A stretch of DNA of 63,997 nucleotides, counting the filler. It is 11 parts of 11 records of this genome, joined end to end, with 100 filler letters (N's around TTAATTAATTAA, not from the genome) between each part and the next. Parts side by side here need not be neighbours in the genome. Positions count along the whole stretch, not along the records: positions 1 to 3,944 come from SRR9188676_912; 10 more parts are not named here. One strand, 5' to 3'. The position numbers and the translations under genes were made by a program. Positions 1-49,971 of this stretch are shown here, one piece after another. Under the pieces are notes generated by a model. The model made no database searches, was not told the DNA's origin, and worked only from the letters and a program-made list of their open reading frames with translations. Each line of letters begins with the position of its first letter. Positions within the stretch are counted from its first letter, which is position 1.

Positions 1-191
1 CGGTGGAGGTAGTAATCTACCTCTCAAGGAGAAAACATACTATACCGCGGTAGAGAAGGAAATATATGTGTGGAGTATATGTGTATATCATCATCATCCT
101 CATTATTTCCTTATTTTCCACAAAGGATAAGGCCAAACAAGAATGTACGGTTACGAAAGATGTGTGTAGATATGTAGGGACAAACACAAAC

Positions 192-1674
192 CTTAAGTAA
201 ATTCGCCAGAGTATCGTCCGTTACATCTTTAGTATGCATGCGTATCGCTCGAACAGCTTTACTGACGTGAGTGACAGCTATGGCGTGACTAGCGCGGGTG
301 TGACGTGAGCTAGCGCCTCGGCCGGAAGAAGGTGGCATAGAAGGTTGAATAGGTTGATTAGAAGGTTGGATGAAAGGTTGAATCGAAGAGGCAATTGTAG
401 TGGATGTGTGTGAGGATGAAAATGATGGAATGGGATTACTCTGAGGATGAAAAGGGGTAGATTGGTTTTGGATTTGGTTCTGGTCAGGAGTCAGTGAATG
501 CGTGGAGCATGCAACGGTTAGGAGTACACGTGTCATAGCGCACACATCACTTTCGGGAACAATATTTAACGCCTCTTCAAGCAGGTTCACAACTTCGCGC
601 TACATAATAGAAAAGGAAGAAAGAAAAAGAGAACGTGGTGAGGTTGGGAAAGAGGAGACATGAGTTGAAAAGACGAGGGTTATGAGTACACGTGTCATTG
701 TGCACACATCACTTTTGGGAACGATGCAAGTTCGAATGTTCTCTCCCTTTCTTCATTTTCATGCATTCACTCCTACCATTACCCCCCGTTCCAGGGAACC
801 TTTCCCTGGACCCCTTCCTTTCACTACGCAGAACATCTGAGTGTCAGAGGAATGGACAAGTCAAAATAGAAGTGTTCTTAACCGATTCTTGAATATCATG
901 TACTCATTCTCACCATTTTTCCTTCTCAAATTTCGAGCACGATACTCAGTAGAGGGTCGAGACTACAAATGATGTAGCTCAAATTCAGAGCTCTCTTGTC
1001 ATTGATGTCTTCTCAATGCGAGACAAATTAATTGATACAGAAAGAGATGTCTTGATGTTTAACTATTATTGGGAGAGATGAGTGATACGAACTGTGCGAT
1101 GGAAGAAATCAGGAACAACTGATGATTAGTATGGAGATTGAAAGACCATCAGTGTGGAAAGATGAAACTTAGAAGATCGGGTTCTTACCGCAACCGAGGA
1201 TGGGAATGACATCTCGACAAAGATAGCCATCGCAATCACAAAGAGTTCAATGTCGCTTTGGCTCAATCTTCGAAAAGTGGAAAGCATGGTCTGCATTAAC
1301 TCGACATCTCCATAAAGTGCAAACTGAAAGAGAAGGAAGAGAGATTCAGTGATACCCGTGTGTTAAAATGGGAGAATAAAGATAGAAAAGAGGATATGAT
1401 GGATCGTAGGATGGAGAAAATGTCATACTTTCGGCAGAAATCGCAGTAGTGTCTTGGGGTATGGACAAATCTCAAGTACTTGAACGAGGCAGATTGCGAT
1501 CTGAGACGATGGACGCGTTTCAAGAAGGGATGTGAGAAAATTGGCGAAATCTTGCTCAGTGTCGAAGTTTCTTTCAAGAACATTCTCCGCGATGAAGCTC
1601 GATGCATTCAGAACAGCGGCATTTGGCGTTTCTCGGATGAATACATTAGGGATCCGATGATTCGAGCTACCCAT
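192..1674 (-). CDS. Multi-exon eukaryotic alpha-helical protein, 3' incomplete, weakly FANCD2-like (exons about 1674-1429, 1323-1189, 599-192)
   Basis: Phase-0 GT-AG junctions join ...LEICPYPKTLLRFLPK|FALYGD...FPSSVA|REVVNLLEEALNIVPESDVCAMTRVLL. The hydrophobic pattern recalls the FANCD2 N-terminal solenoid from memory only. Start codon uncertain. Confidence 0.45.
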
Positions 1675-2161
1675 GTCGAAATGAGAGCAAAATTTCAGCA
1701 GAATCAGCGTCTTTTAAGACTCTTTTTCATCATCTTATCGCGCAGGACGAATGTATCGACGCAGGCATCACGATCAGAATGAAAGGAGCGAAATTTCAGC
1801 TCGGGGAATAAAACTACCACAATGGTTTCTAAACTAATGGACTTTCTCTTGACAATACCACAGGTCATGTGTTAGTCAACGTCAAAAAACGCCGATTCTG
1901 CCTTCGAAAAGGGCAGATGCTACCGCTCAGTCAAGCCGCAGGCTGGCAACATTCCATTCCAATTCAATTGTCCCTTTCTGAAACACAAAATCGGTTTCAA
2001 ACCCTGGTAAACCAATCCAACCACAGGACCAAAAACACACCACAACAATTTTCGCCATTCGTCATGACCTGTCCCTATTTTCTGCAACGTCTTCTGGTTC
2101 CAGAGCCAAACTTTCAACACGATTCTCTCGTTCGATTATCGACTACTTTCAGCAGAAAAAA

Positions 2162-3674
2162 ATGGTGAATGTTACTGAAAAGATCCAGGCTTTGAAGGCT
2201 GTCAAGTACCTCTCTGCCTTGAACGATAACACTGTGCGCCACGTCGCTGACGCTCTCCAGTTTGTCGCTTACAATGATGGTGACTTGATCGCTCAAGGTT
2301 TGTGAAACCGCTTCGAGTTTTTTGCTCGATATGATATGAGGTTGGTGTTCTAATGATTCCGCGTCATATAGGTTGCGACCAAGGTCTCTTCATCATCCAC
2401 TCTGGCATCGCTGTCGAGCAGAAGCCTGATAGCACTGTTGTCGAGTATCCCGCTGGCACTTACTTCGGCCTTGGCCAACTGGTAAGTTTCATTTCCCTTT
2501 CATAAAAGCAAATTCTGGAACTCTTTTTTTGAGGCCGCGATCGTTGAGCTCTGTTTTGTTTACTTGATCGCTGATCATTTTCTGTTTCGTTTCCGTCTCT
2601 CTCTCTTATTTTTTTTTCCCCTCGCAGTTCCATGATGTGCCCCACACTGGCGCCTTCCGCGCTCGTGGTGCCGTCCAGGCCTGGAAGCTCGATGCCTGCA
2701 TCTTCAAGAACATTCTTGAGAATGAGATTCCTGCTACCCCTGCTGGTGTGGTCATTGGTGTGATCGGTGCTGGTGCCGTCGGTGCTTCTGCTGCCAGCTC
2801 TCTGATCCAGAAGAACATTGCCGGAACTGTGAAGCTGTTCGATATCAACACCACACTCTGCGAGGGTGAGGTCTTGGATTTGCAAGATGAGGCCTTCATC
2901 ACCGGTACCACTGTTAAGCTGGCCCCCACTCTTGGCGACCTCCGTGACTGCGACATTGTCGTGATCACTGCCGGTGCCAAGCAGCAGCCTGGTGAGCCCC
3001 GTACTGCTCTTGTCAAGCGCAATGCCAAGATCCTCAAGGGCATCTTGGAGGGCATGTTCCCTCTGCGCCCTAGCACCATCCTCTTGCTCGTCACCAACCC
3101 TGTGGACATCCTCACCTCTCTTGCCCAAGTCTGGTGCGCTCCTTACATCCCCTCCACCCAAGTCATTGGCTCTGGTACCTACCTCGATACTCAGCGTCTG
3201 CGTGTGTCTCTTGCCACTACTCTCGGCATCTCTGTCAAGTCCATCCACGCCTACGTGCTCGGTGAGCATGGTGACTCTCAATTTGTCTCGCGATCTGCGT
3301 CCCGAATCGGCGGCTGCTCCCTGGACCAGCTCTCTCAGCTCAACGACGAAGACCTCAAGAAACTCGAGGAAGCCACCAAGCGCAAGGCCTACGAGATCAT
3401 CAACCGAAAGGGCGCGACCTCTCACGGTATCGGCGCCTGCGTGGCCGCGATCTGCGAAAGCATTGTGCTCGACAAGCGCGAGGTTCTCCCTGTGAGTGCC
3501 AAGAAGCAAGACGGTGGCTGCTGCATGGGCTGGCCCTCTATCCTCGGCAAGAAGGGTATCATTGCCACCATGCCCCTCCAGCTCACTCCTCATGAGACTG
3601 AGGCGCTCAACAAGACCACCGAGGTCATGACCGGCATCATCCGCGAGGTGCTGGCTGACCCCACTCTCGCTTAA
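2162..3674 (+). CDS. cNMP-binding-domain / L-lactate dehydrogenase fusion, join(2162..2297,2372..2481,2628..3674), 430 aa
   Basis: Two phase-compatible GT-AG introns (GTTTGT...CTAAT...TAG; GTAAGT...polypyrimidine CAG). N-terminal LKAVKYLSALND...YNDGDLIAQG...LFIIHSG...GTYFG...WKLD is a cNMP-fold pattern. The C-terminal part has GVIGAGAVG, TAGAKQQPGEPR (Gln102, LDH-type), NPVD, LDTQR and GEHGDS. Confidence 0.9.
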
Positions 3675-3944
3675 AATTATTCTCTCTATATCTATTTGGG
3701 ACTTTCTTCTTATCGACTATAATCATATATCGTGTAATTATTATCTACTGTGTATACTTTAATCTGTATTCTAGAATACTTCTCCGACGGAGCTAAATAA
3801 ACATCTATTTACCTCAATTTGCGGACTTAACTGTTTTTGCATTTACAAAAACTCTGCTCTCTGTTGGCTGAGTTTCGGTCAGCCCACCAGAGGTACCGTA
3901 TTGTCTCGCATATTGCGGCCTCCGCATACAGTTGCATCTCGAAT

Positions 3945-4044
3945 NNNNNNNNNNNNNNNNNNNNNNNNNNNNNNNNNNNNNNNNNNNNTTAATTAATTAA
4001 NNNNNNNNNNNNNNNNNNNNNNNNNNNNNNNNNNNNNNNNNNNN
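3945..4044. other. Artificial contig linker (N44-TTAATTAATTAA-N44). Identical linkers at 8593-8692, 22329-22428, 25730-25829, 29173-29272, 31334-31433, 35936-36035, 51449-51548, 54938-55037 and 61557-61656
   Basis: Exactly 100 nt each with a central all-frame-stop 12-mer; composition and gene style change abruptly across them. Confidence 0.99.
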
Positions 4045-5496
4045 GGGAACTATCCCCCTTTTTGACAGTGTCATCTCTTGATTCGTTTTGACCCGATCAG
4101 CACAGAGTTCGGATTGTTGCCGAGGCAGTACCTGGGGGGTTTTGGCGAACGTCACAAGCTCCGGAAACTCAGAGAAAGTTTTAGTGGTTTCGTGGGGATC
4201 CACAGGGATTCATTCGGTCACGAATCATAAGGACAGGCCTACTAACAACAAAGATATGAAGTGGGTCTCGTGAAATGGCGGTAAGTACTGATAACTGAGA
4301 CCGTGGAATTATCCGCGTGATACTGACGGTACTACTGACAGCTGAAGAGATAGGAGAATTCACGGGCTAATGCGAGTGATGCGAGTGAGAATAGGGGAGC
4401 AAGACAAAGTGATCATTTGATAGATGAAGATGAATGACGAGTGGAGAAATTCACAATGGTCGTGCTGTGGTTGACAGTTTATAAACCGTGGGGTGTGCTT
4501 GAGGCATGGTTTTCTTTCTTTCTCTACTCTCTCAGAGTACTAGACTGACAACGGTGATGAATGTTTGCTTGGACACAAGCTTACAGAAGAGTGGGCCTAT
4601 ACATCACAGGGAAAGGGGGGTCCGGCAGCCAAATTGGTGAGAAAAGCGAAACATTTTGGATGGAGCGGTGCCCCCTTTTCCCAGTGCATACTAGTTTATC
4701 CCTAGTGTGCTCCGAGAGGAGTGAGTATAGTGGGAATGGTGTCTTGCAGATATTCATTGATGACAGTAGGGGGTGAATGTGCGAATGAAGATTGGAGGAG
4801 CTGTATAAGAGAAATGATGAGTCAGAGTCGAGATAAGTGGCAAAGAGGTCTCTAGCATAACGGTCATTAGTGTAATTAGTGGACAGAGGGAGTGTGGGAT
4901 CTGTCAGAGTCTGAGGGGTACCGACGGTGAAGAATGAAGGGTAAATCGGTTTATATAGGCAATATAACCTTTGATGAGAGTGGTGATGGTGACAGAAAGA
5001 TCGTCAATATTTGGACCATGAATCTGTTTCGTGGTGAGTGATAGTGTGAGTGTGCGTGAGGGAGGATGTTGATGATTTTCGATAGGCTTTCATGCAGATG
5101 CTCATTCGCATAATCAATGATCGGAAGTTGTAAGGTAAGTCCGCATAGACCAAGCACTGGGTGATAATAGTGGCGATGCTGGTGGCAGAAAAGTCTCGAA
5201 AGTATGGGGAATGGGGGCGGTTGCTTGCTGATCAGCGAGAAGGAACTTGTTCATGGAGATATTGGCAGGGAAGTCAGTGGATTATTCCCCAAATTATAAG
5301 TGTGAGTGATAGTGGTGTTGGTGCAGGAAATGGTGATGGTGTTGCTGAAAAAGAAGTCTAGAATATGTGGCTCATGGGGTAGCTGTTGATGAGCCTGCAA
5401 GAAGTTTGTTCACAGTGGCAGATGATAATGGGGGTGATGGTTGCAATCATGTGGTGTGACATAACAGTCGACAGTGCAGGAGGCATATGTGCTCGT

Positions 5497-8496: not shown

Positions 8497-8693
8497 GTCA
8501 GTCTTCGTGGATTCTGGGTGGATTTAAAGTGGATTTCATAAGGAATTCGGATCACGAATCGTTTAGTCAAAAAAAAAAAAAAAAAAAAAAAANNNNNNNN
8601 NNNNNNNNNNNNNNNNNNNNNNNNNNNNNNNNNNNNTTAATTAATTAANNNNNNNNNNNNNNNNNNNNNNNNNNNNNNNNNNNNNNNNNNNNC

Positions 8694-9770
8694 AAACCAC
8701 AAGGTGAAAGAAGAGAATTTAACTCAGAGCGTCGTGACTTTAAACCACAAGGTGATAAGCCAGCTTTTGAACGCAAAGAGTTTGTAGATAAAAGAAAGCC
8801 TGTTGGCAAGAGATTTGATAAAGGTGACTTTAACAAGCCTCGTCCAGATGCAGGAAGTTTTGAAAAAAAAAGTAGAAGCGAAAGACCCGAAAAAACTTTT
8901 GGTTCTGCCAAAGCAAATTTCGGAGGAGAGAATCTTTTTAAAGCACACAGACCAGTAGAACAGTCTGATAAATGGACTCCGAACTACAAACTTGATAAGT
9001 ACAAAGATACTGCACCAAGAAAAGTTCAGAAATTGATTGAAAAATCAGAGCATAAATCTAATTCAGATGTACGTTTGAACCGTTATATTGCTAATTCAGG
9101 CGTTTGTTCTCGTCGTGAAGCTGATGATTTAATCAAAGCGGGAGCTATTAAAGTAAATGGCGAAGTCGTTACTGAAATGGGTTATCAAGTAAAACCTGGC
9201 GACATCGTTAAGTACGGAACGAAGAAATTGAATCGTGAGAAAATGGTTTATGTTTTGGTAAACAAACCAAAAGATTTTATCACCACGACTGAAGACCCGA
9301 ACGACCGTAAAACAGTAATGGATTTAGTGAAAAATGCTTGCGAAGAACGTATCTACCCAGTAGGTCGTTTAGACAGAAACACGACTGGTCTTTTATTGTT
9401 GACGAACGATGGTGAATTAGCCGATAAATTAACTCACCCTTCTAACGAAATCGAAAAGTTATACCAAGTAGAATTAGACAAACCTTTGACAGAAGAACAT
9501 TTCGAAAAAATCAAAGCGGGCGTTACTTTAGAAGATGGTGAAATCAAAGCAGATGAACTAGGAATGGTTACGCCTGATGGAATGGTTGTTGGTATTAAAA
9601 TTCACTCAGGTCGTAATAGAATTGTTAGACGTATCTTTGAATCACTAGGTTACGAAGTATTAAAACTAGATAGAACTACTTTCGCAGGTTTAAGTAAAAA
9701 GGATTTACCAAGAGGAACTTGGCGTTTCTTATCTGAAAGAGAAGTGGTGAAATTGAAATTTTTTAAATAA
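8694..9770 (+). CDS. rluB: RluB/RsuA-family 23S rRNA pseudouridine synthase with S4 domain, 5' truncated, charged N-terminal extension
   Basis: RLNRYIANSGVCSRREAD S4 motif, GRLDRNTTGLLLLTNDG catalytic Asp motif, GRNRIVRR. Frame open from the contig start. Confidence 0.9.
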   Translation, partial: KPQGERREFNSERRDFKPQGDKPAFERKEFVDKRKPVGKRFDKGDFNKPRPDAGSFEKKSRSERPEKTFGSAKANFGGENLFKAHRPVEQSDKWTPNYKLDKYKDTAPRKVQKLIEKSEHKSNSDVRLNRYIANSGVCSRREADDLIKAGAIKVNGEVVTEMGYQVKPGDIVKYGTKKLNREKMVYVLVNKPKDFITTTEDPNDRKTVMDLVKNACEERIYPVGRLDRNTTGLLLLTNDGELADKLTHPSNEIEKLYQVELDKPLTEEHFEKIKAGVTLEDGEIKADELGMVTPDGMVVGIKIHSGRNRIVRRIFESLGYEVLKLDRTTFAGLSKKDLPRGTWRFLSEREVVKLKFFK

Positions 9771-22104: not shown

Positions 22105-22547
22105 TTTTCAATTATTTTATTTTGGGGGCTGTCACCCGACCAGTCCACATAGATTATTTTGAACGCTATTCTGAGCAGTATGTGCAAAAATAATATTGGC
22201 TTGATGGGCGGTTCTGGAGACCACCACAGTAATAAATCCACCAATACACCCAAATTGAGTTCTAATACAGATTTTCTGACTATTAACTCAGTTTGACAGA
22301 GCTTTAACTCAGATTTATTGAGTACTAANNNNNNNNNNNNNNNNNNNNNNNNNNNNNNNNNNNNNNNNNNNNTTAATTAATTAANNNNNNNNNNNNNNNN
22401 NNNNNNNNNNNNNNNNNNNNNNNNNNNNGATAAAAATCAAGTCTAAATCTAAAAACAGCACCTCTCATCATAAACAAATAAATAAGCCATTAATGGATAG
22501 AGTATACTGATAACTGTCATGATAGAGAAGATTGGAGCTGCTCTTAC

Positions 22548-25317: not shown

Positions 25318-25829
25318 CTGTGTGCAATACGATAGAGACAAAAGAAAGAAAGAAAGAAAAATAACCATCAGCCCACAATGTGAAATAATGCGGGTGTGGT
25401 GAATCAGGCGACAGCAGAATGAAATGGCTGATAATGCCGAATAGAACCGACAGAGAATAAAGTGTCGAAGTCCAATAGTTGTTTGAAAACTCTCCTCTTA
25501 AAAACGCAGAAAAACGCGATCAATATTCGTAAGATGGTGCTGATACTCAAAAATGCAACTGAAATTGATCTTATCAACAGCATCCACATTCAAACAGCTA
25601 CAATCGGATCGCACCCTACTGCAATATCTAAGAACAAAGAGTGTATGTGTAGGCCAAGGAATGGTGGATGGCGACGTTGGATTTGGGGTACCTCTGGCTC
25701 CTAAGGAACATAAAACGCCCCTTAAGAGCNNNNNNNNNNNNNNNNNNNNNNNNNNNNNNNNNNNNNNNNNNNNTTAATTAATTAANNNNNNNNNNNNNNN
25801 NNNNNNNNNNNNNNNNNNNNNNNNNNNNN

Positions 25830-29047: not shown

Positions 29048-30258
29048 GTAAGTACTGAATTTTGGTCAACTCCAGCCTCAAAAAAACAACAAAACTTGAG
29101 TTTTCAGGGTCACGTCCCGAAGCCTACTTTTTAAGAGCAGGTTGAAATAGTTATTTTCGCAAGGGAGATTTGNNNNNNNNNNNNNNNNNNNNNNNNNNNN
29201 NNNNNNNNNNNNNNNNTTAATTAATTAANNNNNNNNNNNNNNNNNNNNNNNNNNNNNNNNNNNNNNNNNNNNTCCCGCCAGGTAAGTGCCGAGTCAGCTT
29301 TTTCACCCCCATATAAATAAACTGAAAATTTCTGATTTATGGGTTTGCTCGATCACATCAGTCATCACACTTTTTGGTGTTTACTATTTATTGAGCTGTC
29401 TCGGGCTGTTCGATTGATTGAATGGATGGAGTTTGAAAGGGTATGAACATTTGAATAATATTTTCGAGTTATATGGAGCTAATTGGTCCGAAATCGTGGA
29501 ATGTGTGTGATTTACGACTGAGGGCGTAATGTAGGGGTTTTCTCTTAGGACTATTTTTGTCGGTACCCCCTGATGCCTGTTATACATCCAAGCGTTAGTC
29601 GGAAAATGGGATAATGTGTTTTGTGTGAGGTAAAAGCCTTCATTTTTACTCATTTCCAGATACTTTCTTGAGACATATTCTCGTTTATATTTGTTTAATG
29701 TTGATTCTCATCCTCAAATCCATTTTCTTGCTGATACATATTCTGCACGACTTCCTGATGATCTTGCCGTGTTTGTTATTCTTCTCGCCAAAATTTATTG
29801 ATAATTAACATAGTGATCTTCACTTAACGTTTTGGCTATCATTTGTGTATCATCTGATATCTGATTGACCCACCTCCATCACGACACCCACCAATCAACA
29901 TCGGCTTACATCATTCTTTCTTGTAAACTTTTTCTTTTTCTCCCAGAGACTCGAATGAAATGACGCTGCAAAGATGGTAACTGTGACAAACTTGCTTCTC
30001 ATTCTGTTGGGCCGACTTGGTCTTGCCAGTAAGTGCCTTCATTCACACGATCCTCTCATCTAGTCTGATCCCTCAAAATCTCATCTATCGGAAGCAGAGC
30101 AACTCCAAAAATAGTAAATATGGGATTAAATTGGAATTTTCTAGCAAGAGATCTCTTATTTACTCATCATGGCAATCTTATCCTTCCACCTCGCTCTCAA
30201 GCATGACATCTGATCAGTCTGTGTGTGTACGCGCTCTACATTTGGATGCTATATCTAG

Positions 30259-30858: not shown

Positions 30859-31945
30859 GTACGCTTGTGCTCCCATTTGTATTGTGCAGTGGAATGTATT
30901 CGGATTCGGATTTGGATTCGGATTTGAATTTGGATTTCTATGTAATGCAACGCCGTTGGGGCAAAGACCTGATGGCTTCAGGGCAACCATAGAGAGAGAG
31001 CGAGTAAGAAAAATAACAGTGCAGTCTCGTTTGGAGTTGCAGGGAGCAATGTCTTCTTTCCGTTTTTTATTTTTCTCCTTTTGCAACGAGAGGGTTTCGG
31101 AGATAGAATTGCACATGCTAAGCACTTTACAGTGGGGCAGCCGTCTCGGGATCACCTTCGAATGTGTGTGCGGGGGAGTTGCTCCCTCACCCTCTCTCGC
31201 CCCCCTTGAATCTCCGTAGAAATCCCATGCTGTGCATTTTTCTCAGCCTGTGTTTTTAACTGCAATTCTCTGGTAAGCGTATCATTTTCATCTTCGATTT
31301 TCCACACAATGAGCAAGAATGCGGGTGTGGATCNNNNNNNNNNNNNNNNNNNNNNNNNNNNNNNNNNNNNNNNNNNNTTAATTAATTAANNNNNNNNNNN
31401 NNNNNNNNNNNNNNNNNNNNNNNNNNNNNNNNNTCTCCAGAATAGAACCACATCGAAAATCTCAGAGGCATTCTTCATACCTGAATTGTTCTGGAATATT
31501 TTTTTGCAGTTGTTTCGATGCGATATCGTGTGTATTTCTTTGCCTCTCTCGTAAGAAAAAATCAAACTGCACTTCTCTTCTATGACGTGACGAGATTGGA
31601 TATTTTGGAAAAGACATCGATCATTGATACATACGACGGGCGATCCATGATCAAATCGAAAGGACAAAAATGATCAACACTCCAAAGAGGGTGTATATGA
31701 ATTCCGTATCGCACGGAATTCACTTGAAGAACATAATGAGAATCGGTGCTTCGATTATGTGCAATTTCTGAGGATCGAAAGACGAGGACAGAAGAGAATG
31801 CTTGTGAGTTCAGAAGGCAATCAATATGAAAGTAACAATTCCTCCATTATTAAGTTCTCCTAGGTTTCTTTCATGATATCCCAGGAGCTTCGAAGCGAGA
31901 AGATACGATTTTCGGTGTGCAAGCGCATGTGCAAGCCATATGTAC

Positions 31946-35640: not shown

Positions 35641-36036
35641 AGACGCGCCAAGAAGTTTATCTGTTCGTTCATAACAAGTATTTCAAATCAAAGAGACATG
35701 AGGATGATGATTATGGTTGCGGGCGACACCCAGTTACTGAAGCCATTTGTATACTGATTCGAAGATCTGTTTTTCGAAGAATTTGAAAAGAGGATTGGAA
35801 TGAGAGTGGGGAAGCATATCCATCCAGTTTACTCCCTCGTGACGCTCAAATATGACGAAAGAGAAACAGTTGGATCAATAAAATCATTGAGATGAGACTG
35901 GAGAAAATTAAAATAAGCTCATAATTACCGAAATCNNNNNNNNNNNNNNNNNNNNNNNNNNNNNNNNNNNNNNNNNNNNTTAATTAATTAANNNNNNNNN
36001 NNNNNNNNNNNNNNNNNNNNNNNNNNNNNNNNNNNA

Positions 36037-36939
36037 TGGTTTCCTAAAAAAGAAAGAGCTTTAGCGACTGGTATTTTTAATTCTGGTGCTAATATTGGTG
36101 CAGTAGCGGCTCCCTTAATGGTTCCGTTTATTTTAGCTACTTTTGGTTGGCAGGTTGCTTTTATCATTACTGGTGGTGTCGGTTTTATTTGGTTAATTTT
36201 CTGGTGGATTGGCTATGAATTACCAGCTAGACAAAATAAATTATCTAAAGAAGAATTATTGTATATTCAGTCAGATAATGAACCAGATACTTCGCATGAA
36301 GAACCAGTAAAATGGGTAAATTTGTTAGGCATTCGTCAGACTTGGGCATTTATTTTTGGTAAAATGCTTACTGACCCAATTTGGTGGTTTTTCCTTTACT
36401 GGTTACCATCTTATTTTTCAGAAACTTTTCAATTGGATTTAAAGAAACCAAGTTTAGAATTAATCGTGGTTTATACTGCAACTACCATTGGAAGTATTGG
36501 CGGAGGTTATATTTCTGGTTATTTAATCAAAAAAGGTTGGCCTGTATTCAAAGCTCGTAAAACAGCGATGTTGAGTTTTGCTATTGCGGTTGTTCCAATC
36601 GTTTTTGCACAATATTGTACAAACATTTGGCAAGCTGTAGTGCTAATCAGTTTAGCGGCTGCGGCTCACCAAGCTTGGAGTGCAAATATTTTTACTACAG
36701 CCTCTGATATGTTTCCTAAAAAAGCCGTAAGTTCGGTAGTTGGTTTAGGTGGTATGGCAGGTTCAATAGGAGGGATTTTATTCCCATTAATCGTAGGTTA
36801 TTTATTAGATACCTACAAAGGGCAAGGAAATATTACTGCTGGTTATAATATTATTTTTATCTTGTGTGGTGGTGCATACCTTTTAGCATGGGGAATTATG
36901 CACTTGTTTAACCCAAGAAATAAACAGGTAGTCATTTAA
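36037..36939 (+). CDS. MFS transporter, ExuT/hexuronate-like (ACS family), 5' truncated
   Basis: WFPKKERALATGIFNSG, LTDPIWWFFLYWLP, AHQAWSANIFT. Confidence 0.9.
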   Translation, partial: WFPKKERALATGIFNSGANIGAVAAPLMVPFILATFGWQVAFIITGGVGFIWLIFWWIGYELPARQNKLSKEELLYIQSDNEPDTSHEEPVKWVNLLGIRQTWAFIFGKMLTDPIWWFFLYWLPSYFSETFQLDLKKPSLELIVVYTATTIGSIGGGYISGYLIKKGWPVFKARKTAMLSFAIAVVPIVFAQYCTNIWQAVVLISLAAAAHQAWSANIFTTASDMFPKKAVSSVVGLGGMAGSIGGILFPLIVGYLLDTYKGQGNITAGYNIIFILCGGAYLLAWGIMHLFNPRNKQVVI

Positions 36940-36969
36940 AATATTAAATTGGATAATAGTAGAGTGTTT

Positions 36970-37002
36970 ACAGGTATCGCAGCTAATGTGATACCTGTTT
37001 TG
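36970..37002 (+). terminator. Intrinsic terminator
   Basis: ACAGGTATC...GATACCTGT followed by a T-run. Confidence 0.7.
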
Positions 37003-37167
37003 TTTTATGGCATTTCCAATGTCATTTCTTCTTATTCATCTTCTGTTTATCTCCTTATAACTGCTAAGTTGGGCTATACATCTAATCTCATAAGATAGAA
37101 TAGTAAAAGTCGATGCAAAGAAGTATTTTGCGTTAAATTACATTTCAAACAAACTTCATAACAAAAT

Positions 37168-38817
37168 ATGAAAAAACTATTCCTTTTGTCGGGTTTATTG
37201 TCGATTTCATTATGGACATCCGCCCAAAATTCTTACCAAAACCACACACAGCTTTCTGCAAGAATCAAGGCATTGAGTTCAAAATTTGCTTCAACTGTTA
37301 CTCTTCAATCTATCGGAAAAAGTAAAGGAAACCGAGATATTTGGGCTTTAGCAATCAGTAAAGGTAATGCAAATAACAAACCTGCCATTGCCATTATTGC
37401 TGGTGTGGAAGGTACTCATTTAGCAGGAACAGAATTGGCGATACAAATGGCTGAAAAATTGGCTGGAGCAAGTACAGATTCTATTGCTAAATTATTAGAT
37501 TCCAAAACGTTTTACTTTATTCCAAGTGTGAATCCTGATGCTCAAGAACAGTTTTTTGCAAAGCTCAAATTTGAAAGAGGAGGGAACGATACAGAAACTG
37601 ATGATGACCGTGATGGTTATATCAATGAAGACTCTTTTGAAGATTTGAATGGTGATGGAATTATTACACAAATTCGTGTGGAAGATCCAACGGGGAATTT
37701 TATCATCAGTAAAGAAGACCCAAGAGTATTGATAAAAGCTGACCCAGCAAAAGGTGAAAAGGGCAAATATTTATTATTGACAGAAGGTATTGATAATGAT
37801 AAAGATGGTTCTTTTAATGAAGATGGAATCGGAGGCGTGAATATTGATAAAAACATGACTTACGATTATCCAATTTTTACACCAGGTTCTGGCGATTTTG
37901 CAGCTTCTGAACCTGAAACAAAAGCATTGTTAAGCTTTTTGTACAAAGCAAATAACATTTTTGCAGTACTTACTTTTGGACCTGCGAACAATTTGACAGA
38001 AGCAATAAAATTTGATAGAAGTAAAACAGCAAAGAGAATTATTACAGGTTTACTTGAAAAAGATGCAAGCGTTGGCGAGCAAGTTTCAAAATTATACAAT
38101 ACTCAAACGGGTTTGAAAGACGCTCCAGTTTTACCACAAACCAAAGGGAATTTCTCACAAACTGCTTATTTTCATGCAGGACGATTCAGTTTTACAAGTC
38201 CGGGTTGGTGGGTACCCAAAGTACAAGTAGCGAAAGATTCTACCAAAAAAGAATTAAACCCGTTGGCAAAAGCTTCTGATAATGAAGAAATTAAATATTT
38301 AAAATGGGCAGACTCACAAAAGCTAAGCAATGTTTTTGTGAATTGGCAATCAATAAAACATCCGGATTTTGTGGGTAAAAACGTAGAAGTAGGAGGAATC
38401 GATCCTTATGCAAAAATGAATCCGCCAGTAAGTTATTTAGCAGAATCTGCCAATAAACATTTGAAGTTTGTATCTGCTTTAGCATCTCAAATGCCTGAAT
38501 TACAAATTGTTGATGTTAATGCTGAAACTGTTTCGGCGGGACTTACTCGTGTTTCTATCAAAGTAATCAACACAGGTTTATTACCAACTTATGCTGAAAT
38601 TGGCGACAAAGTGCGTTGGGTTCAGAAAGTAAAAACTGAATTGAAATTAACAGGAAATCAAGCGATTGTTACTGGCAAGAAAATTAATTTAAGAAGTGCT
38701 TTAGCTGCTGGTGAAACACAAGAATACTCTTGGTTAATTAGTGGAAATGGTTCAATCAGCATTGAAGCGGGTTGTCCAACAACTGGGTTAAAAACGATAA
38801 ATGTTAGCTTGAAATAA
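37168..38817 (+). CDS. Secreted M14 metallocarboxypeptidase homologue, zinc/catalytic motifs degenerate
   Basis: Signal peptide, IGKSKGNRDIW, IPSVNPDA, SEPETKAL, three DxDxDG loops; VEGTH in place of HxxE. Confidence 0.85.
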   Translation: MKKLFLLSGLLSISLWTSAQNSYQNHTQLSARIKALSSKFASTVTLQSIGKSKGNRDIWALAISKGNANNKPAIAIIAGVEGTHLAGTELAIQMAEKLAGASTDSIAKLLDSKTFYFIPSVNPDAQEQFFAKLKFERGGNDTETDDDRDGYINEDSFEDLNGDGIITQIRVEDPTGNFIISKEDPRVLIKADPAKGEKGKYLLLTEGIDNDKDGSFNEDGIGGVNIDKNMTYDYPIFTPGSGDFAASEPETKALLSFLYKANNIFAVLTFGPANNLTEAIKFDRSKTAKRIITGLLEKDASVGEQVSKLYNTQTGLKDAPVLPQTKGNFSQTAYFHAGRFSFTSPGWWVPKVQVAKDSTKKELNPLAKASDNEEIKYLKWADSQKLSNVFVNWQSIKHPDFVGKNVEVGGIDPYAKMNPPVSYLAESANKHLKFVSALASQMPELQIVDVNAETVSAGLTRVSIKVINTGLLPTYAEIGDKVRWVQKVKTELKLTGNQAIVTGKKINLRSALAAGETQEYSWLISGNGSISIEAGCPTTGLKTINVSLK

Positions 38818-38860
38818 TTGTAAGCTAATTAAACGGTCAATTTAAATTCGAAATAAATCA

Positions 38861-40606
38861 ATGAAAAAATATATCATCTTAATTCTTTTAACCTGCTCGT
38901 TTTCAGTTTTTTCTCAAGAGAAAATTCAGAATGATGACCTTACTGGTTTAAGAGCGATTGGCTCACCGGCGAACCCAAAAGTAAAAATGGCTTGGAATCA
39001 TTATAACGATTATGCCATGATTACGAAATTCTGTCAAGATTTAGCCAAAGCGTATCCAGATTTAGTAAAAGTAGAATCGATGGGAAAATCTTATCAAGGC
39101 AAAGAAATGTGGGTATTGACTATCAGTGATAGCAAAACAGGTAATGTGGCTAGAAAACCGGGTTTTTATATTGATGGAAATATTCACTCAAACGAAATTC
39201 AAGGTACAGAAGTAGCCATGTACACAGCTTGGTATTTGGTTGAAAACTTTGCTTCAGTGCCATTTATCAAGCAATTATTACAAGATAAAGTATTTTATAT
39301 TACTCCAACAATTAACCCTGATGCTCGTGAAGATTTCTTGAAAAATCCTAACAATGCCAATTCTCCACGTTCGGGTATGATGGCGATGGATGATGATGGC
39401 GACGGACAAGCTGACGAAGATAAGTATGATGATTTGGATGGCGATGGTAACATTGTCATGATGAGAAGACGTTCGGCGACGGGTCGTTGGAAAGTAGATC
39501 CAGAAAATCCGCAAAGAATGATTCCCGTAAAAGCAGATGAAAAAGGGGATTACGAAATGCTAGGTTATGAAGGCATTGATAATGATGGCGATGGTTTAAT
39601 CAACGAAGATGTTTTGGGATATTATGACCCGAACCGTGATTGGGCTTGGAATTGGCAGCCAGATTACGTACAACGTGGAGCATTATTTTATCCGGGAACT
39701 TTGTCAGAAACACAAAATATCAAGAATTTTATCATGACGCATCCAAATATTGCAGGTGCGCAGAGTTATCATAACAATGGTGGTATGTTTTTGCGTGGAC
39801 CGGGTGCGGAAGAAGATGCTCCTTTCTATTCCACTCAAGATGCGTCGGTATATGATTACTTCGGGAAGATTGGTGAAAAAATGAATCCGGGTTATAAGTA
39901 CTTTGTGATTTACAAAGATTTATATACTGTTTATGGTGGTGAAATAGATTGGCTGGCTTTAGGAAGAGGAATTTTTACATTCTCTACAGAATTAATGACT
40001 TCTTATAAATTATTCAACAAAACTGCCGAAGAAGGTCGTTTCCAAAATAATGAATTTGATGAATTCAGTCGTTTGATGTTGTTTGGCGATGCTTATGTTA
40101 CTTGGAAGCCTTTCAAACATCCACAGTATGGTGATATTGAAATTGGAGGTTCAAAGAAAAATTATGTAAGAGCGCATCCGGGTTTTTTATTGGAAGAAGA
40201 TGCTCATAGGAATATGGCTTTTACAATTTTACACGCTTCACAAATGCCGAAATTAGATGTATTAGAAGTAAAGCAAAAAGCTTTGACGGGTGGTTTTACA
40301 GAAGTAACGGCTACGATTGTAAACGAAAAAGTAATTCCAACGCATTCGGCACACGATGTAAAATACAAAATTGAACGTCCCGATTTTATAAGCTTAAAAA
40401 ATGCAACGGTTGTAGCTGGAATGATTGTTGAAAATGAAGATACAAATCTTACAAAAGAACAAATCAATAATCCTCAAACAATTGCTGTTCCAAGTATTCC
40501 CGGAATGGGAGTTGTAAAAGTACGTTGGATTGTTAAAGGTAAAAGTGATAAATTTACTGTCGAAATCGATAGTAAAAAAGGTGGACTGGTGTCTAAGACC
40601 TTGTAA
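38861..40606 (+). CDS. Secreted M14 metallocarboxypeptidase
   Basis: GKSYQGK, GNIHSNE (HxxE), PTINPD, DPNRDW, SYH, FSTEL; three DxDxDG loops. Confidence 0.92.
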   Translation: MKKYIILILLTCSFSVFSQEKIQNDDLTGLRAIGSPANPKVKMAWNHYNDYAMITKFCQDLAKAYPDLVKVESMGKSYQGKEMWVLTISDSKTGNVARKPGFYIDGNIHSNEIQGTEVAMYTAWYLVENFASVPFIKQLLQDKVFYITPTINPDAREDFLKNPNNANSPRSGMMAMDDDGDGQADEDKYDDLDGDGNIVMMRRRSATGRWKVDPENPQRMIPVKADEKGDYEMLGYEGIDNDGDGLINEDVLGYYDPNRDWAWNWQPDYVQRGALFYPGTLSETQNIKNFIMTHPNIAGAQSYHNNGGMFLRGPGAEEDAPFYSTQDASVYDYFGKIGEKMNPGYKYFVIYKDLYTVYGGEIDWLALGRGIFTFSTELMTSYKLFNKTAEEGRFQNNEFDEFSRLMLFGDAYVTWKPFKHPQYGDIEIGGSKKNYVRAHPGFLLEEDAHRNMAFTILHASQMPKLDVLEVKQKALTGGFTEVTATIVNEKVIPTHSAHDVKYKIERPDFISLKNATVVAGMIVENEDTNLTKEQINNPQTIAVPSIPGMGVVKVRWIVKGKSDKFTVEIDSKKGGLVSKTL

Positions 40607-40620
40607 AATAATTACCTAAA

Positions 40621-41160
40621 ATGGAAAAAATTAGATCTACAACCGTTCTGGCGGTAGTGCATAATGGCGAAGTAGCGATTGGTGCAGACGGACAAGCGAC
40701 GATGGGAAATACCGTTGCGAAAAATCATGTGCGAAAAATCAGAAAAATGTTAGATGGGAAAATCGTAACTGGTTTTGCGGGTTCAACGGCTGATGCTTTT
40801 ACTTTGTTGGAGCGTTTTGAAGAAAAATTAAATGCTTATGGAGGAAATATGAAGCGTGCAAGTATCGAATTAGCCAAAGATTGGCGTACAGACCGCTATT
40901 TACGCAAATTGGAAGCTATGATGATTGTTGCCAACAAAGAAGAAACCTTAATTATTTCAGGAACTGGCGATGTGCTTGAACCAGAAAATGGTATTGCGGC
41001 CATTGGTTCAGGAAGTAATTATGCACTTTCGGCAGCGTTGGCAATGCGTAAACATGCGCCTCATTTAAGTGCTGAGGAAATTGTTCGTGAAGGATTGACC
41101 ATCGCAGCAGATATTTGTATTTATACGAATCATAATTTTATTATTGAAAAGCCAGTGTAG
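40621..41160 (+). CDS. hslV: ATP-dependent protease subunit HslV
   Basis: STTVL N-terminal Thr, [41 protein letters not shown]. Confidence 0.97.
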
Positions 41161-41283
41161 GTTTTCGGATTTCGGTCGTCGGCTTTCAGATTTCAGCTTT
41201 TTGATTATTTACTTTCATTATATAATTAAATCAGAAAGTAGAGTTGAAATCTGTAATCTGATGACCGATAGCTGAAAGCCGAC
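41161..41283. repeat. Inverted array of degenerate heptamers
   Basis: GTTTTCG GATTTCG GTCGTCG GCTTTCA GATTTCA mirrored by complementary heptamers at 41245-41283. Confidence 0.7.
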
Positions 41284-41385
41284 TCCTTAAAAAAATATCA
41301 ATTAGCCAGTATCTTGAAACCTTTTTTTTGCTAATCTTGTATTCCAATAGAGTAAGTATTTATAAACTTTAAATTGATTAAAACT

Positions 41386-42021
41386 ATGTCATTAAGATTA
41401 GGAGATATCGCACCCGACTTTACGGCGGAAACAACTCAAGGAACGATTAATTTTCATGAATGGATTGGCGATTCATGGGCTTTACTTTTCAGTCACCCAG
41501 CAGATTTTACGCCAGTTTGTACGACTGAATTAGGCAAAACAGCTTTATTAAAAGGTGAATTCGAGAAAAAAGGAGTAAAAGTAATTGCAGTTTCTGTAGA
41601 TGATTTAGACTCACACAATAAATGGGTTCCAGATATTGAAGAAGTAAATGGTGTTAAAGTGAATTTCCCAATCATTGCAGATGCAGACCGCAACGTGGCT
41701 ACTTTGTATGATATGATTCACCCAAATGCTTCTGAAAAAGCAACTGTTCGTTCGGTATTTATTATCGGACCAGATAAAAAAGTAAAATTAACACTTACTT
41801 ATCCAGCTTCAACAGGACGTAATTTCCAAGAATTATTAAGAGTAATTGATTCACTTCAATTGACGGCTAACTACCAAGTGGCTACTCCAGCAGACTGGAA
41901 AGATGGTGAAGATGTTATCATTACGCCAGCTGTAAAAACAGAAGATGCTGCGGCTAAATTCCCAAAAGGGTTTACAATCATCAAACCTTATTTGAGAACA
42001 ACGCCTCAACCTAACAAATAA
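41386..42021 (+). CDS. 1-Cys peroxiredoxin (Prx6)
   Basis: FSHPADFTPVCTTELG, YPASTGRNF, TPADW. Confidence 0.96.
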   Translation: MSLRLGDIAPDFTAETTQGTINFHEWIGDSWALLFSHPADFTPVCTTELGKTALLKGEFEKKGVKVIAVSVDDLDSHNKWVPDIEEVNGVKVNFPIIADADRNVATLYDMIHPNASEKATVRSVFIIGPDKKVKLTLTYPASTGRNFQELLRVIDSLQLTANYQVATPADWKDGEDVIITPAVKTEDAAAKFPKGFTIIKPYLRTTPQPNK

Positions 42022-42051
42022 TCGTTGAATGATTTTATAATTCATTGACTA

Positions 42052-42089
42052 GAAAAGGCAAGAAGATGGAACATTTTTCTTGCCTTTTT
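42052..42089 (+). terminator. Intrinsic terminator
   Basis: AAAAGGCAAGAA...TTCTTGCCTTTT. Confidence 0.75.
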
Positions 42090-42102
42090 GTATTTTTGTG
42101 GC

Positions 42103-42891
42103 ATGAATTATCTAAAACTACTAAAGAAGCGTTTCCGATTACTCCCTCGAACTGTCAGGATTATCCTTGTTTCTATACTTTTCCTTTTTCTGTCTTTTGT
42201 CGTTTATATTAGCTTACGCCCTAATCCTAATGGCTGGACGAAAGTATCCAAATTAGGAATTACTTTGCCTTTGCGCTATAAAATTCATGGCATTGATGTC
42301 TCACATCATAATGGCGTTATCAATTGGAAGAAAGTAAAAAAAATGAGGTTTTCGGAGGAAGATTTAAAACTAGGTTTTTGCTTTTTGAAAGCAACCGAAG
42401 GTATGAGCCATGCCGACCGCCAGTTTGAAAGAAATTGGGAACAAGTAAAAAAGAGCGGCCTAAAACGGGGTGCTTACCATTTTTATATCGCTTGGCGTGA
42501 GCCCGTTGGACAAGCTAAAAACTTTATTAATTCTGTAGATTTGGAAGAAGGAGATTTGGCACCAGTATTGGATATTGAACAAAATTCTTTGAAACCCGAC
42601 AAACAAATTATTGAAGAATTAGAAACTTGGTTGGAAATTGTTGAAAATCATTACCACAAAAAACCAATTATTTATACGAATCCCAATTTTTATAAGAAAT
42701 TTATTAAAGGGAATTTTGATGATTATCCGCTTTGGATTGCAGATTATTCAAGAGAAAGTTTGAAAGGTTATAATTCCAATCTCTGGTTTTGGCAACATAA
42801 CCAACGTGGCTGGTGCGAAGGTGTAAAAGGTACAGTAGATTTTAATGTTTTTTTAGGTACTCAAGAAGATTTAGAAGATTTGTGTCTCTAA
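42103..42891 (+). CDS. GH25 lysozyme/muramidase with N-terminal membrane anchor
   Basis: GIDVSHHNG, KATEG, GAYHF, LDIE, VDFNVF. Confidence 0.93.
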   Translation: MNYLKLLKKRFRLLPRTVRIILVSILFLFLSFVVYISLRPNPNGWTKVSKLGITLPLRYKIHGIDVSHHNGVINWKKVKKMRFSEEDLKLGFCFLKATEGMSHADRQFERNWEQVKKSGLKRGAYHFYIAWREPVGQAKNFINSVDLEEGDLAPVLDIEQNSLKPDKQIIEELETWLEIVENHYHKKPIIYTNPNFYKKFIKGNFDDYPLWIADYSRESLKGYNSNLWFWQHNQRGWCEGVKGTVDFNVFLGTQEDLEDLCL

Positions 42892-42976
42892 ACTTTTAGT
42901 AATATGATATTCGTTTTGAGCTTTTTTGATTATAAAAGGCTGAAAATCTCTACGCTCACCACTCATAACTTAAAGC

Positions 42977-44170
42977 TCAAAAACTATCAAGAATCACTTT
43001 TGCGTAATTTTTTGCTTGATTCAAATCAGCAAATTCTTTCATACTTTTTTGATTACCAATTTGTGAATTGCTATTTAGAAGAGCTTCTAATTTATGTTGA
43101 AAATCATCTTCAATGGCTTCGTCGATAAGTAAGCCTAACTGTTTTTCAGCTGTAATTTTCCCCATCAAGCCATAATTAAAAGTAATTAAAGGTTTTTGCG
43201 CACTGGCTGCTCTTACCATAATGGCACTCATGCCGATGTGTTTTTGGTACAAAGCCAAAATATAATCTGATACTTCAAAAAAAGACTGAATATCCTCGTC
43301 GGCTACAAAACGGTTGTGAGTAATAACTTGTACGCTGTTTTTTTGTTGGAGTACAGCAAGTTTTTGTTCGAAAAGTGATTTTTCTTGTTCATCCCAAGGA
43401 CCAACAATCAATAAACAAACATCTTTTGCTTTACCATCAGAAAGTTTTGCGAAAGTATCCATTACTGTTGAAATACCTTTTCTATCATCTAAATGCCCAA
43501 AAATTAAGAATACTTTCTTGCTTTCAGCAATTCCCAATTCTTCCTTTATTAAACGAATAGATTTTTTGTTAGGATAAACTTGTACGGGGTCTGGCAAGAA
43601 TTTAACTTTGTCGCTTCTCCAATTTTGTTGAATAAAATCAACGGCAAAAGGGTCGAGACAAAATAAAGTACTTAAAGCTTTTCGATGTAAAATGGCTTTA
43701 AGCAACAAATATTTACGCCAAAAACTAATTTTTTCCTTCACTGAATTAACAGGATAATTAACCAGTGTTGGTCTAAACAAAATACCTGAAACTGGACAAA
43801 TCGGTTTTTGTTCAGTTAAACAAGCCAGTTGAAGATGGTCGAAATACATCATTAAAATGTGAATGGCTTGTAGCTTTTTAGCATACTCAGCGCAAATTGT
43901 CCATTCTAATTTTGCTCGTTTGATTACATCACTTTTGCTATTTTTCCAGTCATTATAAGTTGTTTCTGAGGTACTTAACCATTCAATATTTTCTGCTGAA
44001 GTATTTTGAATAATAGTAGGATGCTTTTCAAAAAAATCTGGATTCACCAAAACAGCTAAACGAAAATCATATTTCTCATTTAAAAAATGAATTAGCAAAT
44101 GATACAGATAGCCGGGATGATGTCCGCTAGCATCAGGTTCAAAGATTAAAACTGTTTTTTGAAAAGACAT
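42977..44170 (-). CDS. Glycosyltransferase (GT-B fold, GT4-like)
   Basis: GHHPGY N-terminus, FGHLDDRKG, C-terminal Rossmann-like segment. Confidence 0.85.
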   Translation of the reverse strand: MSFQKTVLIFEPDASGHHPGYLYHLLIHFLNEKYDFRLAVLVNPDFFEKHPTIIQNTSAENIEWLSTSETTYNDWKNSKSDVIKRAKLEWTICAEYAKKLQAIHILMMYFDHLQLACLTEQKPICPVSGILFRPTLVNYPVNSVKEKISFWRKYLLLKAILHRKALSTLFCLDPFAVDFIQQNWRSDKVKFLPDPVQVYPNKKSIRLIKEELGIAESKKVFLIFGHLDDRKGISTVMDTFAKLSDGKAKDVCLLIVGPWDEQEKSLFEQKLAVLQQKNSVQVITHNRFVADEDIQSFFEVSDYILALYQKHIGMSAIMVRAASAQKPLITFNYGLMGKITAEKQLGLLIDEAIEDDFQHKLEALLNSNSQIGNQKSMKEFADLNQAKNYAKVILDSF

Positions 44171-44190
44171 GAGATGATAAGTGTTTGCTG

Positions 44191-45291: not shown

Positions 45292-45327
45292 ATTTATTTT
45301 TGATTGAGTGAGTTGTGAATGAGTGAA

Positions 45328-45366
45328 TTTTGATAATCTACGTTAATCAAACGTAGATTATCAAAA
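45328..45366 (-). terminator. Hairpin/terminator after pepP
   Basis: TTTTGATAATCTACGTT / AACGTAGATTATCAAAA perfect inverted repeat. Confidence 0.7.
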
Positions 45367-45406
45367 TATTTTTAAGACACTCCTCATCTCAATTAATGCA
45401 CAGTTC

Positions 45407-46699: not shown

Positions 46700-46712
46700 A
46701 TTTTAAAAGATA

Positions 46713-47477: not shown

Positions 47478-47611
47478 AATTTAAACTTGAAACGTTTTGG
47501 ATTCCGTTTTGAATGATTTAAAATGTTACAAACTAAAAAAGGGAATGATTTTTACACAAAGGTAAAAAATCATTCCCAATATCTGATTATCAAAAATCAA
47601 GAAGCTGAATA

Positions 47612-48379: not shown

Positions 48380-48510
48380 TGAATTATAGTTTATGTTTAT
48401 TTTAATTTTAATTTGCGTAAAATAAGCTATTCTTGTTTCTGGATAAATAATCTCATGCTTTATACTGAACGGCAATATTCAAGAATATCTTGCGAAATAA
48501 TAATTTATTT

Positions 48511-49035: not shown

Positions 49036-49063
49036 TTTTCTAAAAATATAAACGATAACCAAT

Positions 49064-49471: not shown

Positions 49472-49477
49472 AAAAGA

Positions 49478-49503
49478 AAACCTCGTCTATTTAGACGAGG
49501 TTT
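49478..49503. terminator. Bidirectional intrinsic terminator
   Basis: AAACCTCGTCTA-TT-TAGACGAGGTTT between convergent genes. Confidence 0.8.
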
Positions 49504-49529
49504 AGATCTCTTAGAAGAAATTGTACAAA

Positions 49530-49685: not shown

Positions 49686-49971
49686 TGCGAACAGAGTTTT
49701 AAATTGAGGTGCAAAATTAGGAATAATATCTTTTTGAAACAAACATATAGGCAATTAATAATTAGACTTTAAGATTTGATACTTTAGGATTAGGAGTAAG
49801 GTTAAGTAAAAAAACTAGTATCAATCGTCCAGAAGTCTTTCAGTCACTTAGTCTAAGAAGAAATAAAACCCATGAAGTTTCCAAAAACTTCATGGGTTTT
49901 GTAATTTTGCAGCCATTGGACAATCCTGTCCGTTTTCACGTTCTCGGGTTTATTGCCCGATTTTATACTCC

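Follow-up and report, generated by a model that had tools for sequence, protein, structure and literature searches.

Introduction

In the mycobacterial type III GNATs MtPat (Rv0998) and MsPat, an N-terminal cyclic-nucleotide-binding (CNB) domain is fused directly to the C-terminal catalytic domain and controls the enzyme allosterically by relieving autoinhibition, binding cyclic AMP (cAMP) with high affinity, about 100 nM (PMC8556138). Here we describe a gene with the same domain order: positions 2162-3674 of a 63,997-nt stretch of DNA, the whole of which was analysed and is called the window below, encode a 430-residue protein that joins a CNB-fold domain to an L-lactate dehydrogenase (LDH). 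Unlike MtPat and MsPat, whose output is that of a GNAT and whose domain takes cAMP, the new protein would be a dehydrogenase, has lost the glutamate and the arginine of the phosphate-binding cassette, and has a linker of 7 residues. By analogy, Rv0998 and MsPat appear to be the best model for a fused CNB domain that gates a non-kinase enzyme, and the logic of the protein described here would most resemble theirs.

Other precedents share the fold or the theme. Like the new domain, trypanosomatid PKA regulatory subunits combine the CNB fold with a remodelled cassette, which in their case no longer takes cAMP; unlike it, they have Gly-Glu ribose contacts and lid helices with capping tyrosines, where the new domain has a leucine and no lid (PMC10959531). 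They also regulate a kinase in trans, unlike the fused domain, and their structures 6ftf, 6flo and 6h4g are among the PDB sequence matches of the query domain. In Trypanosoma brucei, PGKL, which is counted with the cNMP-binding proteins, likewise combines a glycolytic-type enzyme domain with a domain for cyclic nucleoside monophosphates (cNMP) in a protist; it differs in being PGK-like, with some forms lacking the substrate residues, and in having another architecture, and the passages on it mention LDH only in unrelated contexts (PMC7729029). We regard PGKL as the closest thematic precedent in a protist. Degenerate CNB domains are also known elsewhere, such as the third CNB domain of Plasmodium PKG and the CNB-homology domains of KCNH channels, which keep the fold, have lost the cassette residues and serve structural or relay roles through intramolecular contacts; these sit in kinases and channels, whereas the domain described here sits on a metabolic dehydrogenase.

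Results

Joining the three exons of the gene (2162-2297, 2372-2481 and 2628-3674; Table 1) gives 1293 nt with a single, terminal stop in a scripted translation, and the 430-aa product equals P0004 letter for letter. P0004 comes from a Trinity transcriptome assembly and was the top match to exon 3, at 100% identity, in a collection of 5.8 billion clusters. Because P0004 is transcript-derived and identical to the splice product, the splice model is independently supported: 2162-3674 is a real, spliced and transcribed eukaryotic gene for a 430-aa chimera, and the observation of the gene and of its fusion is far beyond chance. The intron borders read CAAG/GTTTGT (donor, 2297/2298) and ATAG/G (acceptor, 2371/2372) for intron 1, and CTG/GTAAGT (2481/2482) and CGCAG/TTC (2627/2628, with a T-rich tract before it) for intron 2; the GC content is 0.54-0.58 in the exons versus 0.39-0.41 in the introns. 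In the chimera, a 7-residue Pro/Ala linker connects a CNB-fold domain (residues 1-115) to a complete NAD-dependent L-LDH that has every catalytic residue.

The fusion also appears to be obligate. Exon 3 opens at Phe83, inside the cassette, and holds the final 33 CNB residues, the linker and the whole LDH. Upstream, the frame is closed by a TGA at 1979-1981, with no in-frame ATG between this stop and 2162, and the first in-frame ATG of the exon-3 frame is Met225, past the NAD-binding motif. With no in-frame ATG before Met225, a product limited to the LDH cannot start from an internal ATG; on this frame analysis, every ATG-initiated LDH product would include the CNB domain. Codon usage is similar across the junction: A is rare at third codon positions in both protein parts (0.03 and 0.05), and the synonymous codon usage of the CNB and LDH parts is correlated (r = 0.82, 57 codons).

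Homology and modelling both point to residues 1-115 as a true CNB-fold domain. Pfam cNMP_binding (PF00027) matches residues 36-114 over profile positions 3-88 of 89 (E 9.6e-6), with a score of 25.9 bits that lies under the gathering threshold of 27.5; exons 1 and 2 taken alone gave no Pfam match, being too short. When residues 1-122 were compared to the PDB with phmmer, 54 sequences matched at E <= 10 and all the listed ones are CNB-domain proteins, headed by Plasmodium PKG (5.1e-15 over three domains, 1.3e-4 for its best single domain); the CNB-B domain of PKA RI-alpha matched at 1.2e-8. Among 1.84 billion representative sequences the domain found 480 matches at E <= 1e-3. The top 149 relatives (the best 150 of the 480, self excluded) are 22-37% identical to it and each match in at least two stretches, the exception among those listed being P0216, a short local match with 55% identity over about 30 residues. 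By single-domain score, the ten nearest relatives are all proteins of 320-490 aa with two PF00027 domains, which reach 109-143 Pfam bits versus 25.9 for the query domain.

Structural models were built on alignments kept separate for the two parts of the protein: A2 contains the query and 20 CNB domains, while A3 and A4 contain LDH sequences only. A mixed alignment of LDH and CNB sequences (A1) was discarded because MAFFT placed CNB segments on LDH columns, and two of the 22 CNB segments, P0180 and P0242, which have long inserts, were excluded from A1 and A2. The AlphaFold2 (AF2) model of the domain on A2 has a predicted local distance difference test score (pLDDT) of 89.3 and a predicted TM-score of 0.80, and it shows the expected helices, barrel and one C-terminal helix. 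In a Foldseek search with this model against the PDB, the best matches listed are all CNB structures (PKA, PKG, HCN, MlotiK1, SthK), with probability 1.00 and TM-scores of 0.73-0.87. The full-length AF2 model, in which the N-terminal part had no alignment cover, is uninformative on how the domains are arranged. In the models, the C-terminal CNB helix spans residues 105-115 and is the only helix between the barrel and the LDH strand that begins at 124, with low pLDDT at the edge of the linker (114-116); a separate lid helix is absent, and a cap over the pocket could come from the LDH domain.

The remainder of the protein has the hallmarks of an L-LDH. Pfam assigns residues 125-249 to Ldh_1_N (PF00056; E 1.1e-30, 107.0 bits against a gathering score of 27) and residues 266-424 to Ldh_1_C (PF02866; E 4.8e-25, 89.0 bits against 22.6). 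At E <= 0.001, 184 distinct PDB sequences match this part, led over residues 125-426 by the L-LDHs 6h9s (3.5e-58) and 1a5z of Thermotoga (4.1e-58). Its best NCBIfam model is the L-LDH equivalog TIGR01771 (291.9 bits, profile positions 1-297 of 299), and the malate dehydrogenase models all score lower, at 226.6 bits or less. In a 50-sequence LDH alignment, G129, G134, R272, H296 and T346 are invariant, and G131, Q201, R207, D269 and R274 are at least 90% conserved; the catalytic residues line up with the same residues in the solved LDHs 6h9s and 1a5z. In conventional numbering we take R272 to be Arg171, H296 His195, T346 Thr246, Q201 Gln102, R207 Arg109, D269 Asp168, R274 Arg173 and H289 His188. 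Gln at position 102 is associated with pyruvate specificity, malate dehydrogenases carrying Arg, and Q201 stands opposite the Gln of both 1a5z and 6h9s. R274 and H289 are both present and match the same residues of the Thermotoga enzyme 1a5z. Arg173 and His188 form the fructose 1,6-bisphosphate (FBP) or anion site of allosteric bacterial LDHs, and non-allosteric LDHs retain both, so that the presence of R274 and H289 does not show activation by FBP. In the full-length AF2 model, pLDDT is 90-98 across the LDH part (92-98 for Ldh_1_N). From its residues, this part would be expected to be an active L-LDH.

A sequence-only reading of this DNA had proposed a three-exon gene with a 430-aa frame, a cNMP fold at the N terminus, a short PATPA linker, an intact L-LDH with the equivalents of Gln102, Arg109, Asp168, Arg171 and His195, and a CNB domain whose end shares an exon with the LDH. 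These proposals agree with the identity of the splice product to P0004, with the PDB homology, AF2 model and Foldseek matches of the domain, with the linker IPATPAG at residues 116-122, with the conserved Q201, R207, D269, R272 and H296, and with an exon 3 that opens at Phe83. The Pfam search of the spliced protein, offered by the same reading as a check, came out as anticipated for PF00056 and PF02866, both above their gathering scores, and fell short for PF00027.

What sets the domain apart is its phosphate-binding cassette. The query cassette, FGLGQLFHDVPHTGAF, lies without gaps opposite the consensus FGELALLxxxPRAATV in the PDB alignments and in A2. Structures of PKA, PKG and CAP show the nucleotide contacted at its ribose 2'-OH by the cassette Glu and at its cyclic phosphate by the Arg. 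We surveyed 304 CNB domains, taken from 147 of the 149 listed relatives and aligned to the query. At position 79, where 278 of the 304 have Glu, the query has Leu, found in one other domain; at position 88, where Arg occurs in 263, it has His, again found in one. Both Glu and Arg occur in 252 of these domains and neither in 5, and the PDB alignments likewise show the pair replaced by Leu79 and His88. Four further positions depart from the commonest residue: Gly80 (Leu in 171 of 304, Gly in 2), Gln81 (Ala in 249, Gln in 1), Gly90 (Ala in 268, Gly in 2) and Ala91 (Thr in 171 and Ser in 65, Ala in 1). Within the barrel, model confidence is lowest at the cassette, with a pLDDT of 83 for block 81-90 in the A2 model and below 50 for residues 79-90 in the full-length model. 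A subfamily of CNB domains with the Leu/His pair was considered and rejected: the sole other such domain, residues 137-240 of P0214 and the second of four CNB domains in that 890-aa protein, is only 25% identical to the query domain.

Since both Glu and Arg are lost, canonical binding of cAMP or cyclic GMP (cGMP) is unlikely, and so, judging from these residues, is canonical gating by either nucleotide. The coupling of second-messenger levels to lactate production, which the sequence-only reading had put forward, is thus not upheld by a cassette with Leu79 and His88 in place of Glu and Arg; the enzyme may yet be ligand-gated, with cAMP and cGMP as unlikely ligands.

The architecture is apparently unique, with a single instance so far. 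Among the LDH relatives (the best 120 of 5630), P0004 alone has PF00027, 1 of 120, and no LDH part was found at E <= 10 in any of the 149 CNB relatives (from the best 150 of 480). When residues 1-122 were used in a word-based search, P0004 itself was the sole match (1 of 116 candidates). In a search scored across the junction (residues 30-200), which gave 43 matches at E <= 1e-3, the other 42 have LDH-superfamily Pfam domains only and no PF00027. A metagenome scan with exon 3, covering 80 loci and L001, yielded no fusion in the 81 by tblastn or by the CNB profile; it screened open reading frames of at least 40 aa, which short exons could escape. The only tblastn match of the domain to these loci covers 24 residues (E 3.2). 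The literature, judged mostly from titles and the beginnings of abstracts, contained no description of a CNB-LDH fusion. This agrees with the sequence-only reading, which knew of no characterised LDH with a cNMP sensor. In one metagenome locus, the bacterial contig L077, an LDH (3209-4105) is preceded on the same strand, at a distance of about 390 nt, by a separate 233-aa Crp/Fnr-like frame (2123-2821) whose CNB domain matches the A2 profile at E 1.1e-8; this is a neighbour and not a fusion.

In a quick IQ-TREE analysis of 42 rows, the LDH part falls within a clade of 25 rows with SH-aLRT support of 100, whose members are two "Colp12" transcriptome proteins, an Ectocarpus protein and metagenome proteins; in this tree no smaller supported group includes the query. 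The ordinary L-LDHs of the clade (P0005-P0050) resemble the query in having PF00056 and PF02866, the same catalytic residues and an LDH domain 46-58% identical to it. They differ from it at the N terminus, as do LDH relatives at large: 0 of the 119 others listed (best 120 of 5630) has PF00027, and most of the same-clade enzymes examined have an extension of 15-58 residues where the query has its 115-residue CNB domain. Of these 24 enzymes, 21 have at least 15 residues ahead of the Rossmann strand, and 19 carry an extension with 5-12 Lys/Arg and zero Asp/Glu. By their composition, these extensions resemble organelle-targeting presequences, which would suggest organellar L-LDHs across a largely metagenomic eukaryotic clade. 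The query carries a net-acidic CNB domain where its relatives have a basic extension. The simplest history would be that, in this lineage alone, a PKA-R/PKG-type CNB domain was added to the LDH gene at its 5' end and took the place of the extension. As intron 2 falls within the cassette and not at the domain border, the present introns do not mark the fusion junction.

Table 1. Positions, in window coordinates, of the parts of the CNB-LDH gene and of the linkers between contigs
Feature	Position	Strand	Description
Exon 1	2162..2297	+	ATG start, residues 1-45 and first base of codon 46; CNB N-terminal helices and first strands
Intron 1	2298..2371	+	74 nt, GT..AG, GC 0.405; P0004 reproduced only once removed
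Exon 2	2372..2481	+	Residues 46-82; beta-barrel core, first half of phosphate-binding cassette
Phe77-Gly78-Leu79	2464-2472	+	Exon 2; Leu79 codon 2470-2472, in place of consensus Glu
Intron 2	2482..2627	+	146 nt, GTAAGT..CAG, T-rich tract, GC 0.39; splits cassette between Leu82 and Phe83
Exon 3 start	2628..2726	+	Residues 83-115; second half of cassette, last two strands, single C-terminal CNB helix
His88	2643-2645	+	Exon 3; in place of consensus Arg
Linker IPATPAG	2727..2747	+	Residues 116-122, CNB helix to first Rossmann strand
LDH NAD-binding domain (Pfam Ldh_1_N)	2754..3128	+	Residues 125-249; G129-x-G131-x-x-G134
Gln201 (Gln102 in conventional numbering)	2982-2984	+	Ldh_1_N
Arg207 (Arg109 in conventional numbering)	3000-3002	+	Ldh_1_N
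LDH catalytic/C-terminal domain (Pfam Ldh_1_C)	3177..3653	+	Residues 266-424; Asp269, Arg272, Arg274, His289, His296, Thr346
His296	3267-3269	+	Ldh_1_C
Stop codon TAA	3672..3674	+	
AATAAA hexamer	3796..3801	+	122 nt past the stop; possible poly(A) signal, from reading of the sequence
Contig linkers	3945-4044, 8593-8692, 22329-22428, 25730-25829, 29173-29272		
Contig linkers	31334-31433, 35936-36035, 51449-51548, 54938-55037, 61557-61656		

Discussion

On its sequence, we class the protein as a new domain architecture, in which an L-LDH family C-terminus follows a CNB-fold homologue that lacks the ligand contacts and scores below the Pfam threshold. Our tentative preference, to which we would give somewhat less than an even chance, is that a degenerate CNB module forms an N-terminal appendage of the LDH that works independently of cyclic nucleotides. 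This module would be devoid of the canonical cAMP/cGMP contacts, with Glu changed to Leu, Arg changed to His and two new glycines in the cassette. Four copies would be present per presumed tetramer, with a tether of about 8 residues joining each to the first Rossmann strand, beside the GxGxxG loop; from there the domain could affect assembly, NADH binding or localisation via protein contacts, and not through second-messenger sensing, much like the degenerate CNB domains of Plasmodium PKG and the KCNH channels.

Several observations weigh against this appendage. The length of the cassette is unchanged, and its Phe-Gly start, Leu82, Pro87 and the Thr after the His are all retained; His can bind phosphate, so the pocket may still accept a ligand, and the two new glycines could widen the pocket instead of ruining it. 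A2 is made of canonical CNB domains and pulls the model to that fold; when the CNB rows are left out of the alignment, the pLDDT of the domain is only 40-74, with the same pattern of secondary structure. The LDH part narrowly misses the TIGR01771 cut-off (291.9 against 303.55 bits). That the enzyme is a tetramer, where the domain makes its contacts, and that the relatives' extensions serve in targeting are all inferred. Finally, the protein is a singleton, with no orthologues to reveal selection on the domain.

The same retained features would fit a domain that senses a small molecule, neither cAMP nor cGMP, and that gates the LDH allosterically through the hinge helix 105-115 and the linker to the NAD-binding domain; we place this on the unlikely side. 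Candidate ligands would be a nucleoside, a nucleotide, a glycolytic intermediate or another metabolite. The CNB fold has been re-used in this manner in trypanosomatid PKA regulatory subunits, whose remodelled cassette takes inosine, guanosine and adenosine; that cassette keeps the ribose-binding Glu (PMC10959531), and ribose ligands would lose their usual contact in a pocket with Leu. In mycobacteria, a GNAT is activated allosterically by the ligand-binding domains fused to its N terminus, a CNB domain among them (PMC8556138). The query domain is predicted to fold, its cassette length, FG start, Pro87 and Thr89 are in place, and its codon bias points to translation in the same way as the LDH part. 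A sensor of this kind is more difficult to reconcile with a barrel that the models show without a following lid helix, with the absence of orthologues showing a conserved pocket, and with a sole other Leu/His domain (P0214) that is 25% identical and part of a four-CNB protein, leaving no subfamily evident. The stronger claim, of a first LDH under a fused CNB-fold sensor whose ligand is not a cyclic nucleotide (nucleoside, nucleotide or glycolytic intermediate), we consider unlikely.

A cAMP- or cGMP-gated LDH linking the second-messenger level to lactate production is very unlikely. The fold is that of PKA/PKG-type receptors, as are the nearest relatives, Epac is a true cAMP receptor without the cassette Glu, and His88 and Thr89 could in principle contact phosphate. 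Yet replacing the cassette Arg in PKA cuts cAMP affinity by orders of magnitude, and here both hallmark residues are changed together, just 5 of the 304 related domains keeping neither; positions 80, 81, 90 and 91 are off consensus as well, and the PF00027 score is below the gathering threshold. It also speaks for a cyclic-nucleotide gate that the cAMP-activated mycobacterial acetyltransferase likewise has a CNB domain at the N terminus and an enzyme at the C terminus (PMC8556138). Alternatively, a lineage-specific rearrangement might have put part of a PKA-R/PKG-like gene before the LDH, where it would be a neutral or decaying passenger with no regulatory role, perhaps merely supplying the start codon and replacing the targeting peptide. 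The degenerate cassette, the singleton architecture in every search and a divergence far greater than that of the nearest relatives (22-37% identity, 25.9 Pfam bits) are in line with such a passenger, which we hold to be quite unlikely given that the frame is intact over 122 codons and two introns, that the host-like codon bias is common to the LDH part (third-position A 0.03; r = 0.82), that all core secondary-structure elements are kept in a confident model, and that the LDH cannot be made without the domain, which would make its misfolding costly.

LDHs are known to be regulated by FBP, pH, substrate and an N-terminal arm, and a fused sensor-type domain on an LDH was not found in the searchable literature or in the sequence collections searched. 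Should the domain prove to regulate the enzyme, the NAD-regenerating glycolytic step would have another means of gating in an anaerobically capable protist, and a metabolic dehydrogenase would be added to the few outputs of CNB domains that are neither kinases nor channels. A sensor for a ligand other than a cyclic nucleotide, if true, would extend the CNB fold to a new class of ligand, and the last fermentation step would have a plug-in allosteric switch in place of control by FBP or the arm. The Leu/His cassette provides a natural test case for a CNB pocket without both canonical contacts, and the case cautions against reading cNMP signalling into the mere presence of a "cNMP domain". Its weight is limited, as it concerns one gene in one organism.

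Genomic context

The window is made of 11 separate contigs of 2.1-15.4 kb with GC contents of 0.35-0.54, and the contig with the LDH gene occupies positions 1-3944 only. The contig linkers (Table 1) are 100 nt each and consist of N44, TTAATTAATTAA and N44. As the contigs are artificially joined, adjacency past 3944 carries no information on the LDH gene. Upstream of the gene, open reading frames in 111-1782 matched no Pfam family above its cut-off, the best being a deaminase family at chance level (15.4 versus 29.6 bits). Open frames on the minus strand of 1126-1713 (for example 1423-1713, with a Met near 1677) run away from the LDH gene and suggest a divergently transcribed neighbour. No Rfam family reached its gathering score anywhere in the window, and a scan of 1700-3944 for promoters and terminators of bacterial type, inapplicable to a eukaryote, gave no excess over shuffled sequences.

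Bacterial DNA, whether from food, a symbiont or a contaminant, appears from sequence identity to be mixed into the eukaryotic assembly. The contig at 8693-22328 (GC 0.35) shares 92-97% identity with parts of a bacterial genome of 6.2 Mb (G001), its pieces mapping to separate places there in a different gene order, and the second low-GC contig, 36036-51448, is probably bacterial too. The idea that the LDH contig might be bacterial contamination was rejected: it has no DNA match in G001 and its introns are of spliceosomal type. The LDH of G001 itself is only 32% identical to the query LDH. At the start of the first low-GC contig, the 63 bases of 8693-8755 match 16 staggered sites of G001, mostly ~51 nt apart and with 85-89% identity (G001:C7:210249-211076), a pattern that reads as a tandem repeat array at the contig end.

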